Notes under the pieces: generated by a model
What the model saw: the letters and a program-made list of their open reading frames with translations, nothing else
Databases searched by the model: none
What the model was told of the DNA's origin: nothing
Assembly: GCA_026985785.1 (NCBI GenBank)
Contig: JALSPT010000163.1
Span: forward strand, 1 to 35,103
Source of the DNA: Anaerolineales bacterium
GTDB lineage: Bacteria; Chloroflexota; Anaerolineae; Anaerolineales; DRMV01
Reading direction: 5' to 3'
DNA length: 35,103 nucleotides
In this document: one piece after another, positions 2,631 to 17,412 of the stretch
Layout: each line of letters begins with the position of its first letter
Numbering within the stretch: position 1 is the first letter of the stretch
Translations under genes and position numbers: made by a program

Positions 2631-3527
2631 CTATTTCCCCAAAAACAGCCCTGCAGCCAGCAGAACCCCGAAAATCAACACCAACTGACCGGTTTGCGCC
2701 AGCGCGACGTTGAGCGCCCGCCCTTCGGCCTGCATCACGATGCGGCGCGTCCGCCAGGCCCACGGCAGCGAGAGCACCACGGCCAACGCCTGGGGTGGAA
2801 AGATGCCCATGCCCACCGCCGCGGCTACGATGAGATAGGCGCCCCAGATGCACAGGTCGTATTCCCGACGCGCCCCGTTCGCCCCCAGCAGCACGGCCAA
2901 GGTGCGTTTGCCCGCCTGTTGGTCGGTGGGGATGTCGCGCAGGTTGTTGACTACCAGAATGGCCACCGAGAGCAGCCCCAAGGGCACCGCCGTCCACCAT
3001 ACCGCCGGGGTGACCGTGCGCGCTTGCACGAAATAGGTGCCGCCGACCGCGGCCAAGCCAAAGTAGAGGAAGACGAACAAATCGCCCAGGCCATAGTAGC
3101 CGTAAGGCAGGGGGCCGCCGGTGTAGCCGATGGCCGCCAGGATGGCCGTCAGGCCGATGAGCGCCACCGGCCAGCCTGCCACGGCAATCAGATACACGCC
3201 CACGGCAGCCGCGAGACCAAAGGTGAGCCACATGCCACGCGTCACCTCGGCAGGCGAGAGCAATCCGGCCTGGGTGACGCGGGTGGGCCCCAGGCGCTCG
3301 CCGGTATCGGCGCCGCGGTGGAAATCGGCGACGTCGTTGGCCAAATTGGCGCCGATTTGCAGCAAGACGCCGCCTGCCAGGGCGGCCAGCGCCGGGCCCC
3401 AGCGGAAAACACCATCGTGGGCAGCCAGCCCCCATCCGGCCAGCACCGGCCCCACCGCGGCGGGCAGGGTCTTGGGGCGGATGGCCAGCAGCCAGATTTT
3501 CCAGCGGGGAAGAGAGGTCGTGGTCAT
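2631..3527 (-). CDS. menA: 1,4-dihydroxy-2-naphthoate polyprenyltransferase (UbiA family)
   Basis: 298 aa and polytopic. It has the UbiA motifs NDVADFHRGADT and NNLRDIPTDQQAGKRTLAV. It sits in the men operon with a 4-nt ATGA overlap with menE. Confidence 0.9.
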   Translation of the reverse strand: MTTTSLPRWKIWLLAIRPKTLPAAVGPVLAGWGLAAHDGVFRWGPALAALAGGVLLQIGANLANDVADFHRGADTGERLGPTRVTQAGLLSPAEVTRGMWLTFGLAAAVGVYLIAVAGWPVALIGLTAILAAIGYTGGPLPYGYYGLGDLFVFLYFGLAAVGGTYFVQARTVTPAVWWTAVPLGLLSVAILVVNNLRDIPTDQQAGKRTLAVLLGANGARREYDLCIWGAYLIVAAAVGMGIFPPQALAVVLSLPWAWRTRRIVMQAEGRALNVALAQTGQLVLIFGVLLAAGLFLGK

Positions 3528-5092
3528 TGGGCATCCTCCGAAGTTGTGGTCTCCGGCGTCGGCGGCGAGGTGAAAAGGGCGCGGACGCCAGGGCGGCGCA
3601 CCTTGCCGGAGGCGGTGCGGGGCAGGTCGGACACCAGACGCCAGCGGCGCGGCACTTTATACCCCGCCAGGTGCCGGCGGCAGTGGGCGGCCAGCGTTTC
3701 GGGGGTGACGTGGGCGCCGGGGCGCAACACCACGGCCGCGGCTACCCGCTGGCCCCATTCGGGGTCCTCGAGGCCCACCACGCAGGCTTCGGCCACGGCG
3801 GGATGCTCCCGCAGCACGGCCTCCACCTCGGCGGGATAAACGTTTTCGCCGCCGGTGACGATCAGATCACCGCGGCGGTTGACCACCCACAAGTCGCCTT
3901 CGGCATCCAGGTAGCCCAGATCGCCGGTGCGCAGCCAGCCATCCCGCAACGCGGCCTGGGTGGCCTGGGGATCGCCGTCGTAACCTGCGAACACGGTGGG
4001 ACCGCTGACCAGAATTTCGCCGATTTCCCTCGCGGGCAACGGGTTGCCGTGGGTGTCTGCAATGCGGATGCGGGTGGCGAAGAGAGGTTTGCCCACCGTG
4101 CCGGGCTTGCGGCGGACTTCTTCGGGGCGCGCCGTGGCGGTTTGGGAAGTGGATTCCGTGAGGCCGTAGGTGGTGGCGATGGGATAGCCGCGGGCGAGGG
4201 CGCGTTGCAGCAGTTCGGGCGCTGCCGCCGCGCCGCCGAGCAGCACCAGCCGTAAGGTCGGTGGCGAGGGAGCGGGCACGGCTTCCAGCAGGCGGTGCAG
4301 CATGGTGGGCACGAGGGAAACCAGGGTGACGCGCTGTTGGACGAGGGTTTCGTATAGCCGAGGAGGGTTGAAAGAGGCGTTGGCGTTTTCGGGGAGCACC
4401 ACCGCGGTGCCGTAGAGGGCGCTGCGCCAGACGATGCTGAGCCCGCCGACATGATAGAGCGGCAAGGTGAGCAGCCAGCGGTCCTCGGGCAGCACGCCCA
4501 GACGAAAGGCCGAGGCCACCGCGCTGTGGTAGAAGTTGGCGGCGGTGAGCACGGCGGCTTTGGGGCGCCCGGTGGTGCCGGAGGTGAAGAGAATGGCGAA
4601 TGGCGAATGGCGAGTGGCGAGGGGTGAGGGGCGAGTTGCGGGGTGCGAGGGGCGAGGGGCGAGTGGCGAGTGGCGAATGGCGAGGGGCGAGGGGCGGGGG
4701 GCTTCCGCAATTCCTAATTCTTCATTCGCTATTTCCATCACCCGCCGTTCGCCGGCGACTGCGCGAGCGCGCGCCGCGGTGCTGGGGGTGGCAAGCACAT
4801 GCGTAGCGCCGCTGCGGTTCAGTTGGTCGCGCATCTCGGCCGGGGCGAGGCGCAGGTTGAGGGGCACCAGCACGGCACCCAGGCGGGCCACGGCGTGGAT
4901 GGCCGCCACGGCCACCGGCTCCCTGGGGAGCAACGCGGCCACGCGGGCCTTCGGGGCGACGCCCTCTTGGGTCAGCACCGCCTCCAGGGCCGCGGCCCAG
5001 GCCGCGAGATCCCGGTACGTGAGGGTGTGGGGTCCCCAAATCAGGGCCGGGCGGTCGGGGGTGGCGAGGGCGCGAGGGGTGAGGAGGTCCAT
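3524..5092 (-). CDS. menE: o-succinylbenzoate-CoA ligase, carrying an in-frame insert of about 35 aa encoded by the heptamer repeat
   Basis: 522-aa adenylate-forming enzyme with LFTSGTTGRPK, TYGLTE, GDLGYLD and PRTASGKV. It lies between menB and menA. Confidence 0.85.
   Translation of the reverse strand: MDLLTPRALATPDRPALIWGPHTLTYRDLAAWAAALEAVLTQEGVAPKARVAALLPREPVAVAAIHAVARLGAVLVPLNLRLAPAEMRDQLNRSGATHVLATPSTAARARAVAGERRVMEIANEELGIAEAPRPSPLAIRHSPLAPRPSHPATRPSPLATRHSPFAILFTSGTTGRPKAAVLTAANFYHSAVASAFRLGVLPEDRWLLTLPLYHVGGLSIVWRSALYGTAVVLPENANASFNPPRLYETLVQQRVTLVSLVPTMLHRLLEAVPAPSPPTLRLVLLGGAAAAPELLQRALARGYPIATTYGLTESTSQTATARPEEVRRKPGTVGKPLFATRIRIADTHGNPLPAREIGEILVSGPTVFAGYDGDPQATQAALRDGWLRTGDLGYLDAEGDLWVVNRRGDLIVTGGENVYPAEVEAVLREHPAVAEACVVGLEDPEWGQRVAAAVVLRPGAHVTPETLAAHCRRHLAGYKVPRRWRLVSDLPRTASGKVRRPGVRALFTSPPTPETTTSEDAQ
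4591..4702. repeat. tandem heptanucleotide array, about 16 units of GARKGGC
   Basis: Read directly: gaatggc x3, gagtggc, gaggggt, gaggggc, gagttgc, ggggtgc, gaggggc x2, gagtggc x2, gaatggc, gaggggc x2, ggggggc. In menE it is translated with 21-nt (7-aa) periodicity: SPLAIRH SPLAPRP SHPATRP SPLATRH SPFAI. Confidence 0.9.
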
Positions 5093-5095
5093 AGG

Positions 5096-5118
5096 AGTTG
5101 CGAGGGGCGAGTGGCGAA

Positions 5119-6009: not shown

Positions 6010-7857
6010 TCACATCTCAGATGTCAGGGATTGCAGACGGCCAATCGCCTCGCGCCGGGCGGCTTCGTGGGCCTGGGCGTCGGTGGGGACCTCGATGAGA
6101 TGGGGAAATTCCTGTGCCAGAACGGCTTGCAGGGTGGGCGACAATGCTTGCGGCGCGACCCGCCGATAGCGCAGGCCGTACATCTCGGCGGCCGGGGCGA
6201 AGGTCAGACCATGGGGGGTGCGGAAAAGGGCCGTGTAAGGCGGTTCGTGCTGGGCGATGGGCAGCCGGGCGAAGATGCCGCCGCCGTCGTTGTTGAGCAC
6301 GACAATGTGGAAGTTTCGCAGGCCGAAGCGGGAGACCGCCAGCAAGCCGCCCAGGTCGTGGAGCAGGGAGAGGTCACCCAGCACAAGCACGGTGGGCCTG
6401 CTGCTGGCCGCGGCCACCCCGGCGGCCGTCGAGACCACGCCGTCAATGCCGCTCACGCCCCGGTTGGCGAAGACGCGCAGCGGTTTGGCCGTGGGCAAGG
6501 CGTATTCGTCCAGGTGGCGCACCGGCAGGCTGTTGCCCACGAAGAGGCGGGCCTCAGGCGGCAGGGCCTTCACCACGGCGGCCAGCAGCGGGCCTTCGGT
6601 GAGGGGCGCCTTGGCTAGCAGGCGGCGGGCACGCTGCTCGGCTTGGTGCCATGCGCCCAGCCATGCTTCGTTGGGGCGGGGGGGACGCCCTGCCAGGGCC
6701 TCCAAAAGGGCGCTCAGGGTGGCTTGCGGGTCGGCCACCAGCCAGTGGGTGAGGCGATAGCCGGGATCAGGCCAGGCGGGGAAAGGCGTGAGGACGACCA
6801 CCTCGGCGTTCGGCGGCAGCCGTTCCAGGTAGTCCAGCAGGGCGTTGCTGGTGGGCGGGGCGCCCAGGCGCAACACAAACCGCGGCGGGTCGGTAGCCGG
6901 CAGCCCGGCGGCGAGGAAGTGAGGGTAGGTGGCGAGGATCTCTCCCCACCCCCGCCCGCCTGCGGCGGGCACCCCCTCCCCTCCCTTATCAAGGGAGGGG
7001 AGGGGGTTGGAGGGAGGGGAGAGATCCACGAACCGCACGCCGGAGAGGGCATCGGCCAACAGGGGGTAGCCCGCGACGGCGGCCAGTTGGCCCAGCAAGG
7101 CGGCGGTTTCACCGTCGGGAGCGGCCTGAGGCCCGGCCACGATGAGCCCCCAACGGTAAGCACGGATTTTCCGCGCCAGGGCCTCTACCTCGGCGGCAGG
7201 CGGCACCCTGGGGGCCACGGTAAGGCGCGTGAGCGGGGCCCCGTCGTGGCGGCCCGAGGCGCCCAGCGGCGCGCGGGCGGCCAGGGCGGCCAGGTCCTGG
7301 GCGTCGTCGGGCTGGGGCTCCAGGGGCTTGCGGAAGGGGAAGTTGAGGTGTACCGGGCCGGGCTTGCCGTGCAGCCCCAGGGCCGCAGCCACAGCCCGAT
7401 CGGCTACGGCCCGCAGGTAACGCAGGGTGCGTGGGGCAGGGGCGTCTTCCGGCAAGGGCAGGTCCACAAACCAGCGTACCGCGCTGCCGTAGAGTTTCAC
7501 CTGGTCGGCGGTCTGGTTGGCACCGCTATCGCGCAGTTCGTGGGGGCGGTCAGCGGTGAGCAGCAACAGGGGCACGCCGGCGCGGTCGGCTTCCAATACG
7601 GCCGGGTGCAGGTTGGCTGTGGCTGTGCCCGAGGTGGTCAACACCGCCGCGGGGCGCCCGCTTTCCAGGGCCAGCCCCAGGGCGAAAAAGGCCGCGCTGC
7701 GCTCGTCCAGGTGCACATAGACAGGCAACCGCTCCTGGCGGCTGAAGGCCACGGCCAGGGGCGTGCTGCGCGAACCGGGGCAGAGCACCACGCCGCTCAG
7801 CGGCAGGCGGGTGAGTTCGTCAACGAACAGCGTGGCGAAAAGGGTGGCGGGGTTCAT
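6010..7857 (-). CDS. menD: SEPHCHC synthase (ThDP-dependent), carrying an in-frame 30-aa insert from a palindromic element
   Basis: 615 aa with N-terminal FVDELTRLPLSGVVLCPGSRSTPL and the ThDP motif GDLSLLHD...NNDGGGIF. It has a 4-nt overlap with menF. Confidence 0.9.
   Translation of the reverse strand: MNPATLFATLFVDELTRLPLSGVVLCPGSRSTPLAVAFSRQERLPVYVHLDERSAAFFALGLALESGRPAAVLTTSGTATANLHPAVLEADRAGVPLLLLTADRPHELRDSGANQTADQVKLYGSAVRWFVDLPLPEDAPAPRTLRYLRAVADRAVAAALGLHGKPGPVHLNFPFRKPLEPQPDDAQDLAALAARAPLGASGRHDGAPLTRLTVAPRVPPAAEVEALARKIRAYRWGLIVAGPQAAPDGETAALLGQLAAVAGYPLLADALSGVRFVDLSPPSNPLPSLDKGGEGVPAAGGRGWGEILATYPHFLAAGLPATDPPRFVLRLGAPPTSNALLDYLERLPPNAEVVVLTPFPAWPDPGYRLTHWLVADPQATLSALLEALAGRPPRPNEAWLGAWHQAEQRARRLLAKAPLTEGPLLAAVVKALPPEARLFVGNSLPVRHLDEYALPTAKPLRVFANRGVSGIDGVVSTAAGVAAASSRPTVLVLGDLSLLHDLGGLLAVSRFGLRNFHIVVLNNDGGGIFARLPIAQHEPPYTALFRTPHGLTFAPAAEMYGLRYRRVAPQALSPTLQAVLAQEFPHLIEVPTDAQAHEAARREAIGRLQSLTSEM
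6937..7026. mobile_element. 90-bp GATC-bounded palindromic element inserted in frame in menD
   Basis: GATCTCTCCCCACCCCC...GGGGAGAGATC termini, with two internal hairpins (GCCCGCC-TGC-GGCGGGC and CCCCTCCCCTCCCTT-atc-AAGGGAGGGGAGGGG). Its termini and central hairpin are shared with the cores of the elements at 14784-14983 and 17196-17396. Confidence 0.8.
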
Positions 7858-14671: not shown

Positions 14672-14783
14672 GGGGAACCTCGCTGGGATGATTTCTCAGG
14701 AAGGGGAAAAGCAAGCGCGCTGGCTACAACGATGTAGTGCGTTAGAGGAGATTTTCGCCGTAAGGGCGCACATCAGTTTAACC

Positions 14784-14983
14784 GGGTGCACTCAAATGTT
14801 GTAGATAAGGCTATCGTATGGCTAGATCTCTCCCCACCCCCTGGCGGAGGCTGTCCTTCGTGAGGACAGCCTCCGCCTTCCCCCTCCCCTCCCTTCAGTA
14901 AGGGAGGGGAGGGGGAGGCCGCCGTAGGCGGCGGGGGAGGGGTGAGATCCTGAAAAGTGCTTCTACGACATTTGCTTGCACCC
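14784..14983. mobile_element. MITE-like element, copy A (200 bp)
   Basis: Imperfect terminal inverted repeats: GGGTGCACTCAAATGTTGTAGA at the left end, and the reverse complement of GGGTGCAAGCAAATGTCGTAGA at the right end. 9-bp direct repeats AGTTTAACC flank it at 14775-14783 and 14984-14992. It has a GATC-bounded palindromic core at 14825-14949. It is nearly identical to the reverse complement of 17196-17396. Confidence 0.85.
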
Positions 14984-14999
14984 AGTTTAACCCAAAATG

Positions 15000-17106: not shown

Positions 17107-17195
17107 GAGGGCAAGAGATGGTGGTGGGCGCTCAGAAAGGTGCCACGGGGGCGTTTCACGGTGTTGAGAGAGACGCGCTGCAGACCCAGTTTGCC

Positions 17196-17396
17196 GGGTG
17201 CAAGCAAATGTCGTAGAAGCACTTTTCAGGATCTCACTCCTCCCCCGCCGCCTACGGCGGCCTCCCCCTCCCCTCCCTTCAGCAAGGGAGGGGAGGGGGG
17301 AAGGCGGAGGCTGTCCTCACGAAGGACAGCCTCCGCCAGGGGGTGGGGAGAGATCTGGCCATACGATAGCCTTATCTACAACATTTGAGTGCACCC
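17196..17396. mobile_element. MITE-like element, copy B (201 bp), inverted relative to copy A
   Basis: The terminal inverted repeats match copy A. 9-bp direct repeats CAGTTTGCC flank it at 17187-17195 and 17397-17405. The core holds three hairpins (CCGCCGCC-TAC-GGCGGCC-like, CCCCTCCCCTCCCTT..AAGGGAGGGGAGGGG, and GGAGGCTGTCCT..AGGACAGCCTCC). Confidence 0.85.
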
Positions 17397-17412
17397 CAGT
17401 TTGCCCTCGCGT

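Follow-up and report, generated by a model that had tools for sequence, protein, structure and literature searches.

The menD gene, encoding SEPHCHC synthase, occupies positions 6010–7857 on the minus strand of a 35,103-nt stretch of DNA (hereafter the window) from the metagenome assembly of an Anaerolineales bacterium (Chloroflexota). Within this gene, at 6937–7026, lies a GATC-bounded palindrome of exactly 90 bp, the parts of which follow one another in the order GATCTCTCCCCACCCCC-GCCCGCCTGCGGCGGGC-A-CCCCCTCCCCTCCCTT-ATC-AAGGGAGGGGAGGGGG-TTGGAGGGAGGGGAGAGATC. The left terminal inverted repeat (GATCTCTCCCCACCCCC, 6937–6953, plus strand) is followed by a side hairpin with a 7-bp stem (GCCCGCC-TGC-GGCGGGC, 6954–6970), by a central hairpin with a 16-bp stem (CCCCCTCCCCTCCCTT-ATC-AAGGGAGGGGAGGGGG, 6972–7006) and by the right terminal inverted repeat (7008–7026, minus strand), which ends in ...GGAGGGAGGGGAGAGATC, has GATCTCTCCCCTCCCTCCA as its reverse complement and differs from the left terminus at two of 17 nt. 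The single-stranded element has a predicted folding energy of −46.4 kcal/mol, its fold being a terminal stem plus two hairpins inside it, compared with a mean of −21.6 for shuffled sequences (z = −9.2; none of 200 shuffles was equally stable), and both sequence and fold agree with the first-pass annotation of this DNA, which had described a 90-bp segment with inverted termini and two internal hairpins. The 17-nt terminus, with up to three mismatches allowed, occurs six times in the window (0.19 expected by chance), in every case as an end of one of three elements, namely that in menD and two intergenic ones at 14825–14949 and 17230–17355. The proposal that these three share a terminus and a central hairpin stands, the left terminus being identical at 17 of 17 nt to 14825–14841 and to 17339–17355 (minus strand) and the hairpin recurring at 14881–14914 and 17265–17298 (none expected); the end of the third element had been placed at 17354 and is in fact 17355. 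The stems of the central hairpin are the same in the menD copy as in the intergenic copies, with a loop of 3 nt rather than 4 nt.

The menD gene is intact and encodes a protein of 615 aa, which matches MenD entries of the PDB with E values down to 7e-96 and retains all invariant columns of a 26-sequence alignment, including the thiamine diphosphate motif. The element is read in frame and without a stop as DLSPPSNPLPSLDKGGEGVPAAGGRGWGEI, corresponding to MenD residues 278–307, with FVDLSPPSNPLPSLDK and GGEGVPAAGGR as the predicted junction peptides. The open minus-strand reading frame, with MenD homology on both sides, bears out the earlier point that the element leaves the frame unbroken. In an AlphaFold2 model built on the same 26-sequence alignment (mean predicted local distance difference test score, pLDDT, 85; predicted template modelling score 0.88), residues 283–285 and 287–303 are all coil with pLDDT below 50, and a Foldseek comparison of the model with Bacillus subtilis MenD (2x7j) gave template modelling (TM) scores of 0.82–0.87. 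Alignments with the MenD chains of the PDB are interrupted exactly at the insert, query residues 276–319 standing opposite chain residues 283–304. Given the low-pLDDT coil, the preserved fold and the break in these alignments, the insert is, in the model, a disordered segment bulging out of a middle-domain loop, which leaves the MenD fold intact and the catalytic domains unaffected; the surface loop that had been expected at this position is thus what the model predicts.

The 90-bp element belongs to a repeat family, and the menD copy is recognized by the family profile with E = 1e-18 (nhmmer). A scan with the exact central-hairpin pattern, in which 185,579 species were represented by a single genome each, found 19 loci, all in five metagenome-assembled genomes of Anaerolineales/Chloroflexota (JALUXH01, JALVVL01, JALUDX01, CAYSXA01 and JAADCW01), with 14 of the 19 in JALUXH01. 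A scan of JGI metagenomes with the terminus pair gave eight loci, of which seven fall on the contigs already found; the remaining one (L034) comes from a close relative of the window organism, since it carries the 200-bp element of the window described below. As far as these scans show, the family would be confined to a few lineages of Anaerolineales/Chloroflexota. The first-pass annotation had proposed a genome-wide search and regarded a lack of further copies as fatal; further copies were found, some between genes and others in frame within unrelated ones. Alignment of 22 distinct copies revealed a fixed frame, consisting of the left terminus GATCTCTCCCCACCCCC, the central hairpin (16–17 bp) and the right terminus GGGGGAGGGGTGAGATC, with one or two side hairpins in between. 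The termini are 17-nt inverted C-tract/G-tract sequences of the pattern GATCTC[TA]CCCC[AT]CCCCC, and the unit has GATC at both ends. Copies measure 88–165 bp in all, and the short copies that stand alone (naked cores) 88–95 bp. RNAalifold analysis of nine short copies gave a consensus three-way junction, all 16 pairs of the central stem being unchanged in all nine. The side arms, on the other hand, vary: at the position equivalent to the side hairpin of the menD copy, other copies have wholly different, GC-rich sequences, and each arm is again a perfect hairpin (examples across the family are GCCCGCC/GGCGGGC, GTCGCC/GGCGAC, GTCCGGC/GCCGGAC, GCCGCGGCC/GGCCGCGGC, GCTCGCCGC/GCGGCGAGC and a 16-bp GGCGGAGGCTGTCCTT arm). 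That the side hairpins vary but always pair with themselves argues that a single strand forms the three-way junction. A profile hidden Markov model constructed from the aligned copies (nhmmer) also picks up weaker relatives, and a sister subfamily was recognized with termini CTCACCC(C/T)ACCCCC...GGTGAG and the central hairpin CCCCCCTTCCCTCTCCC; C-rich termini are common to the subfamilies. Rfam and tRNA scans gave no match. When the two common translations were joined into a 60-aa query, no further host proteins came to light and only three candidates had words in common, and the single match in a HMMER scan of 1.84 billion representatives (P0121) was rejected as spurious, being an unrelated 'NPLPSVDAG' repeat protein.

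Copies of the core lie in frame in five unrelated housekeeping genes in all. Besides menD, these are, with Pfam domains on both sides of the insert identifying the hosts, a gene for a UvrD-like helicase (L013), in which a 90-bp core is read as DLSPPPSPLPSLGKGGEGEPSGARRGWGEI, nearly the MenD peptide; a gene for a fusion of serine hydroxymethyltransferase (SHMT) and GcvT (L018), with a 95-bp core between the two domains; uvrA, with three copies (L021, and L034 with the same arrangement); and maf (L017), with an 89-bp core, the product of which is about 26 residues longer than PDB entry 1ex2 exactly at the insert. The composition of the element, about 80 % G+C and almost entirely C and G tracts, means that most frames are open (five of six in the menD copy), which explains the survival of copies inside genes. 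In the Maf loop, the element is present in homologues that are 97 % and 70 % identical, further relatives have other inserts and some are empty. No near-identical empty Maf site was found, the closest homologue (97 % identical) being filled and the next ones at most 75 % identical. As to the individual hosts, the fusion is encoded by a single long open reading frame (ORF) spanning L018 1–2664 with SHMT and GcvT (aminomethyltransferase) domains, the core lying in the linker just before GcvT, and the Maf loop of other Anaerolineae (relatives of L017 6331–7128) contains different inserts, such as THVLSGGRSAATPKVEG... and LRLRSLRSLRSGRS..., that look derived from other repeats. The in-frame insertion in UvrA comprises about 190 aa (L021 7039–7754; L034 12868–13434) and includes, together with the three cores, a DUF559 domain (a Vsr-like PD-(D/E)XK nuclease; Pfam E = 2e-25) directly flanked by two of them (cassette at L021 7186–7754). 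This arrangement is kept at the same UvrA position in the second genome with 80 % amino acid identity.

Comparison of MenD orthologues indicates that the insert of the window is a lineage-specific addition and that the loop concerned has been occupied repeatedly. The insert is absent from 21 of 25 aligned orthologues, including all distant ones, none of which contains a homologous 30-residue segment, and from the solved MenD structures examined. The expectation of a clean 30-residue gap was only partly borne out: the gap is there, but the empty orthologues have a loop of 7–9 residues, of which the window retains a single residue beside the element, so that the net gain is about 22–23 residues and some of the native loop has been lost. 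In the nearest relatives (P0002, P0003 and P0005) the same codon position is occupied by inserts that differ in length from that of the window, and a fourth protein (P0011) has one at a different site. At the DNA level, the inserts of P0002, P0003 and P0005 are not a native segment; they are other copies of the same superfamily, belonging to a different subfamily, inverted or decayed. The insert at L005, which encodes P0005, can be aligned with the element of the window only when inverted (score 55 vs 21); in a neighbour-joining tree this locus falls in the sister clade beside the empty P0006 and P0004, and it has the different gene neighbourhood of that clade. The insert at L002, which encodes P0003, belongs to the sister subfamily, scoring 48 against the insert at L007 (the locus encoding P0011, from another genome) and 20 against that of the window. 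Orientation, subfamily and tree position together therefore point to multiple independent events in one loop, which, on the sequences compared, would have been hit at least twice and probably three times, the window copy being apparently young. The predicted folding of the inserts forms a series from intact (z = −9.2 in the window, −8.6 at L007, −6.7 at L013 and −5.8 at L017) to background (−2.0 at L002, −0.35 at L003 and −0.17 at L005), as insertion followed by neutral decay predicts, and the decay is presumably neutral.

MenD seems to offer several permissive insertion sites. The intact sister-subfamily element of P0011 (L007 10660–10750; z = −8.6) lies about 70 residues upstream of the insertion site of the window, between the first and middle domains; P0052 contains PLSPRERAEGEGG in its C-terminal domain; and P0007–P0010 have Ser/Ala/Pro-rich inserts at other loops. 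In relatives, a small '23S rRNA intervening sequence protein' gene (PF05635) is situated between menD and menB (L001/L002 11991–12317); it is absent from the window.

[quoted passage not shown] Both intergenic copies of the window belong to one of these MITEs. The first core (125 bp, with three internal hairpins, 14825–14949, plus strand) lies within a 200-bp MITE at 14784–14983 (plus strand), which has outer inverted repeats of 22 nt (GGGTGCACTCAAATGTTGTAGA / TCTACGACATTTGCTTGCACCC) and is bordered by a 9-bp target duplication, AGTTTAACC, at 14775–14783 and 14984–14992. The second core (126 bp, 17230–17355, minus strand) is inverted with respect to the first and 95 % identical to it, and lies within a second copy of the same MITE (201 bp, 96.5 % identical, 17196–17396, minus strand) with the 9-bp duplication CAGTTTGCC at 17187–17195 and 17397–17405. 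The cores of intergenic elements that the first-pass annotation had named at 14825–14949 and 17230–17354 are thus both embedded in these larger elements. Synteny of the window with relatives stops near 9.7 kb, and hence orthologous empty sites for the two intergenic copies are not available. The other carrier, the 'GGTGATTACCCA' element of JALUXH01, is characterized by outer repeats (C)YGGTGATTACCCA and by an arm ACCCTTCTTCCGAGTTTTGGGTAATCACC, is flanked by 8–9-bp duplications (e.g. GCGAATGTA, AGAAAGCAC and TAGGTACTC) and contains the core in an internal position that does not vary; at least ten copies are present in the DNA examined (loci L008, L011, L014, L016, L019, L022, L024, L025 and L026). 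A further copy of the window MITE begins at position 2592 of L034, where the left flank, GGTAAACT, is the reverse complement of AGTTTACC, which suggests AGTTTRMC as a preferred target of this MITE. The two MITEs of the window are in inverted orientation and bracket a 2.2-kb segment in which one ORF resembles ribulose-phosphate 3-epimerase and another resembles Ser/Thr kinases.

Our current working hypothesis, which we consider likely to be correct, is that the 90-bp segment represents a young copy of a palindromic repeat of Anaerolineales/Chloroflexota that is selfish, non-autonomous and translated, spreads in trans, survives in genes only where the frame is preserved and then decays neutrally. 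Copies would be mobilized by an enzyme encoded elsewhere, and naked copies (88–95 bp) would land without a visible target duplication. A copy arriving in a gene would survive only if the net change in length were a multiple of three, the host frame contained no stop and the site were a permissive surface loop, selection removing all other genic insertions. The surviving copy would be transcribed and translated with its host as a Pro/Gly-rich disordered loop, here of 30 residues in the middle domain of MenD, and would thereafter decay neutrally. The core also rides in the two unrelated MITEs, which transpose with 8–9-bp target duplications, and the two intergenic copies of the window would have arisen in this way. 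It is interesting to speculate on the chemistry: a single-strand mechanism (HUH/Y1-type), or another one, would fit the wealth of hairpins and the lack of a target duplication, and no candidate mobilizing gene was seen in the DNA examined. GATC itself was considered as a duplicated target and thought unlikely, as the net insertion would then be 86 bp and out of frame; with 112 occurrences in the window against 120 expected, the tetranucleotide is moreover about as frequent as chance predicts. An intrinsic terminator, an intein and an intron were rejected, given that there is no U-tract and no splicing domain and that the frame constraint is respected.

Several observations weigh against this hypothesis. 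No autonomous partner or parent insertion sequence was found in 246 kb of distinct DNA, where the termini are always closely paired around a core and never enclose a gene-sized segment. No direct repeats flanking naked cores were found and no near-identical empty site was obtained, so that we infer transposition itself. In three of the six copies within genes the distance between the defined termini is 89 or 95 bp, and upkeep of the frame would need further adjustments in these cases. Translation of the insert is deduced from the open frame, although the fact that every intragenic copy keeps the frame of its host argues for translation rather than removal from RNA. All of the sequences, moreover, come from metagenome assemblies, and the recurrent occupation of the MenD and Maf loops could also reflect the replacement or gene conversion of an old insert.

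The last point leads to the best of the alternatives, which is nevertheless unlikely: the MenD and Maf loops may each have been occupied once, long ago, and gene conversion via the common C-tract/G-tract termini may later have overwritten the remnant, changing subfamily or orientation without new transposition. Such refreshing of a site would account for the element-derived DNA at the same codon position in four related MenD lineages, for the same pattern across relatives in the Maf loop and for the disappearance of the native 7–9-residue loop from the window, as if it had been replaced, and the C-rich termini common to the subfamilies would provide the necessary homology. It would, however, require precise losses in P0004 and P0006, which have clean short loops within the clade; the intact copy at L007 occupies a different MenD site; and the copies in four other genes mean that de novo entry into coding DNA is needed in any case. 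We regard as less probable still the idea that the naked core is a hairpin-guided element with an insertion chemistry of its own that leaves no target duplication, homing to loop-coding DNA or replacing remnants there. The core–DUF559–core cassette in UvrA would then be its autonomous or founding form, and the whole a nuclease-driven palindromic element colonizing genes in frame; a literature search revealed no link between DUF559 and mobility.

Domestication, in which selection maintains either the hairpin, at the DNA or mRNA level, or the Pro/Gly-rich peptide, for example as a flexible linker, as a site of protein binding or as one of pausing or processing in the transcript of the men operon, appears very improbable. 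The central hairpin is invariant in all copies, the side arms still pair despite changes in sequence and the UvrA insertion is conserved between two genomes, all of which could be taken as signs of selection, but recent amplification would be expected to leave the copies just as uniform. Copies at the same site in relatives have decayed to background folding (z = −0.2 to −2.0), most MenD orthologues do without the insert, which is itself predicted to be disordered, and the element matches no Rfam family. Finally, an assembly artefact splicing a repeat into menD, or a native Pro/Gly linker similar in composition only, might be suspected in a low-complexity segment on a metagenome contig, but is largely refuted by the continuous frame with MenD homology on both sides, by the terminus match of 17/17 nt (0.19 expected by chance) and the hairpin match of 33 nt (0 by chance), and by in-frame copies in independent assemblies and other genes.

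The window contains other repeats. A menE-like ORF (3524–5092, minus strand) includes, at 4594–4702, a tandem array of about 15 heptanucleotides (GGCGAGK), in frame as ...PRPSPLAIRHSPLAPRPSHPATRPSPLATRHSP..., and the MenE orthologue of L003 is about 17 residues shorter at this array; heptamer-like units occur again just upstream of the menE start (5072–5117). With this array, the operon that contains the palindrome has another type of coding insert derived from repeats. Two tetranucleotides are almost absent from the window, CTAG (2 observed vs 120 expected) and AGCT (5 vs 120), which may reflect restriction avoidance.

Translated selfish palindromes have so far been seen mainly as a curiosity of Rickettsia, and their occurrence in a free-living Chloroflexota of high G+C content is therefore of interest. 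The colonization of the MenD and Maf loops, apparently repeated, by different subfamilies, in both orientations and in states from intact to decayed, offers a cleaner natural experiment, with a direct view of repeat insertion creating and then eroding disordered loops in essential enzymes, and it indicates where MenD, Maf, UvrA and UvrD-like proteins tolerate insertions. A practical warning is that Pro/Gly-rich 'linkers' and length variation in metagenomic proteins of Anaerolineae can be repeat-derived, and that such repeats can break assemblies. The hypervariable, self-pairing arms, the carriage in unrelated MITEs and the recurrent colonization of the same protein loops are features worth following up.

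Among known systems, repetitive extragenic palindromes (REPs) and bacterial interspersed mosaic elements (BIMEs) resemble the present family in their GC-rich hairpins, lack of target duplication and mosaic hairpin modules. They are, however, 20–40 bp long with a GTAG or CGTC head, are extragenic and are mobilized by REP-associated tyrosine transposases (RAYTs; IS200/IS605-like Y1 transposases) (PMC3733652). The menD family differs in its length of 88–165 bp, its GATCTC termini and its many intragenic copies, and no RAYT gene was seen in the DNA examined; identity with REP/BIME was rejected on size, head, location and RAYT alike. The short mobile repeats of the archaeon Haloquadratum walsbyi are nearer in some respects, being about 110 bp long with prominent inverted terminal repeats and no target duplication, and having termini unrelated to any transposon, a target preference and a mechanism of mobilization that is not known (PMC3119063). 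They share with the menD family the inverted termini, the absence of a target duplication and, as far as the 246 kb of distinct DNA shows, the lack of a known parent insertion sequence, but they are archaeal and unrelated in sequence, and translated intragenic copies are not given in that report.

Intragenic bacterial MITEs (ERIC, Correia, Coxiella QMITE1 and Anabaena MITEs) have in common with the menD family terminal inverted repeats, a size below about 500 bp, many copies and no transposase, and occasionally form in-frame fusions with host ORFs, as here (Delihas 2007/2008; PMC10969869, PMC2229807, PMC5896051). The outer 200-bp element of the window and the JALUXH 'GGTGATTACCCA' element behave as classical MITEs with 8–9-bp duplications; the naked cores, in contrast, have no target-site duplication, and the 246 kb of distinct DNA yielded no parent insertion sequence sharing their termini. 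The closest parallel in behaviour is with the Rickettsia palindromic elements (RPEs), palindromic repeats of about 100–150 bp found in intergenic regions and in frame in genes (Ogata et al. 2000, 2002, as summarized in PMC10969869). The first-pass annotation had pointed to RPEs as the established precedent. In behaviour the comparison holds, with in-frame copies in five genes and a tolerated loop, but a 2024 review calls in-frame MITE–ORF fusions 'not unusual', with RPEs as the extreme case (PMC10969869); the precedent is therefore broader than Rickettsia. A literature search revealed no description of such repeats in Chloroflexota, Chloroflexi or Anaerolineae. Like RPEs, the menD family is a small palindromic repeat family with many copies, both intergenic and in frame in unrelated housekeeping genes that are not destroyed, predicted to be translated with the host at a position that the fold tolerates (as the AlphaFold2 model, the TM scores and the break in the PDB alignments indicate for MenD), and without a transposase of its own. 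It differs in that all carriers are Anaerolineales/Chloroflexota assemblies rather than Rickettsia, in being about 80 % G+C in a free-living organism rather than resident in an AT-rich obligate intracellular host, in its modular three-way junction with hypervariable side hairpins, in also travelling as cargo in two target-duplicating MITEs and in the repeated hits on the same loop. Rickettsia genomes are AT-rich, and sequence similarity of an RPE to this C/G-tract element is implausible by composition. The element in menD thus works like an RPE but stands outside the RPE family, from which its host and composition set it apart.

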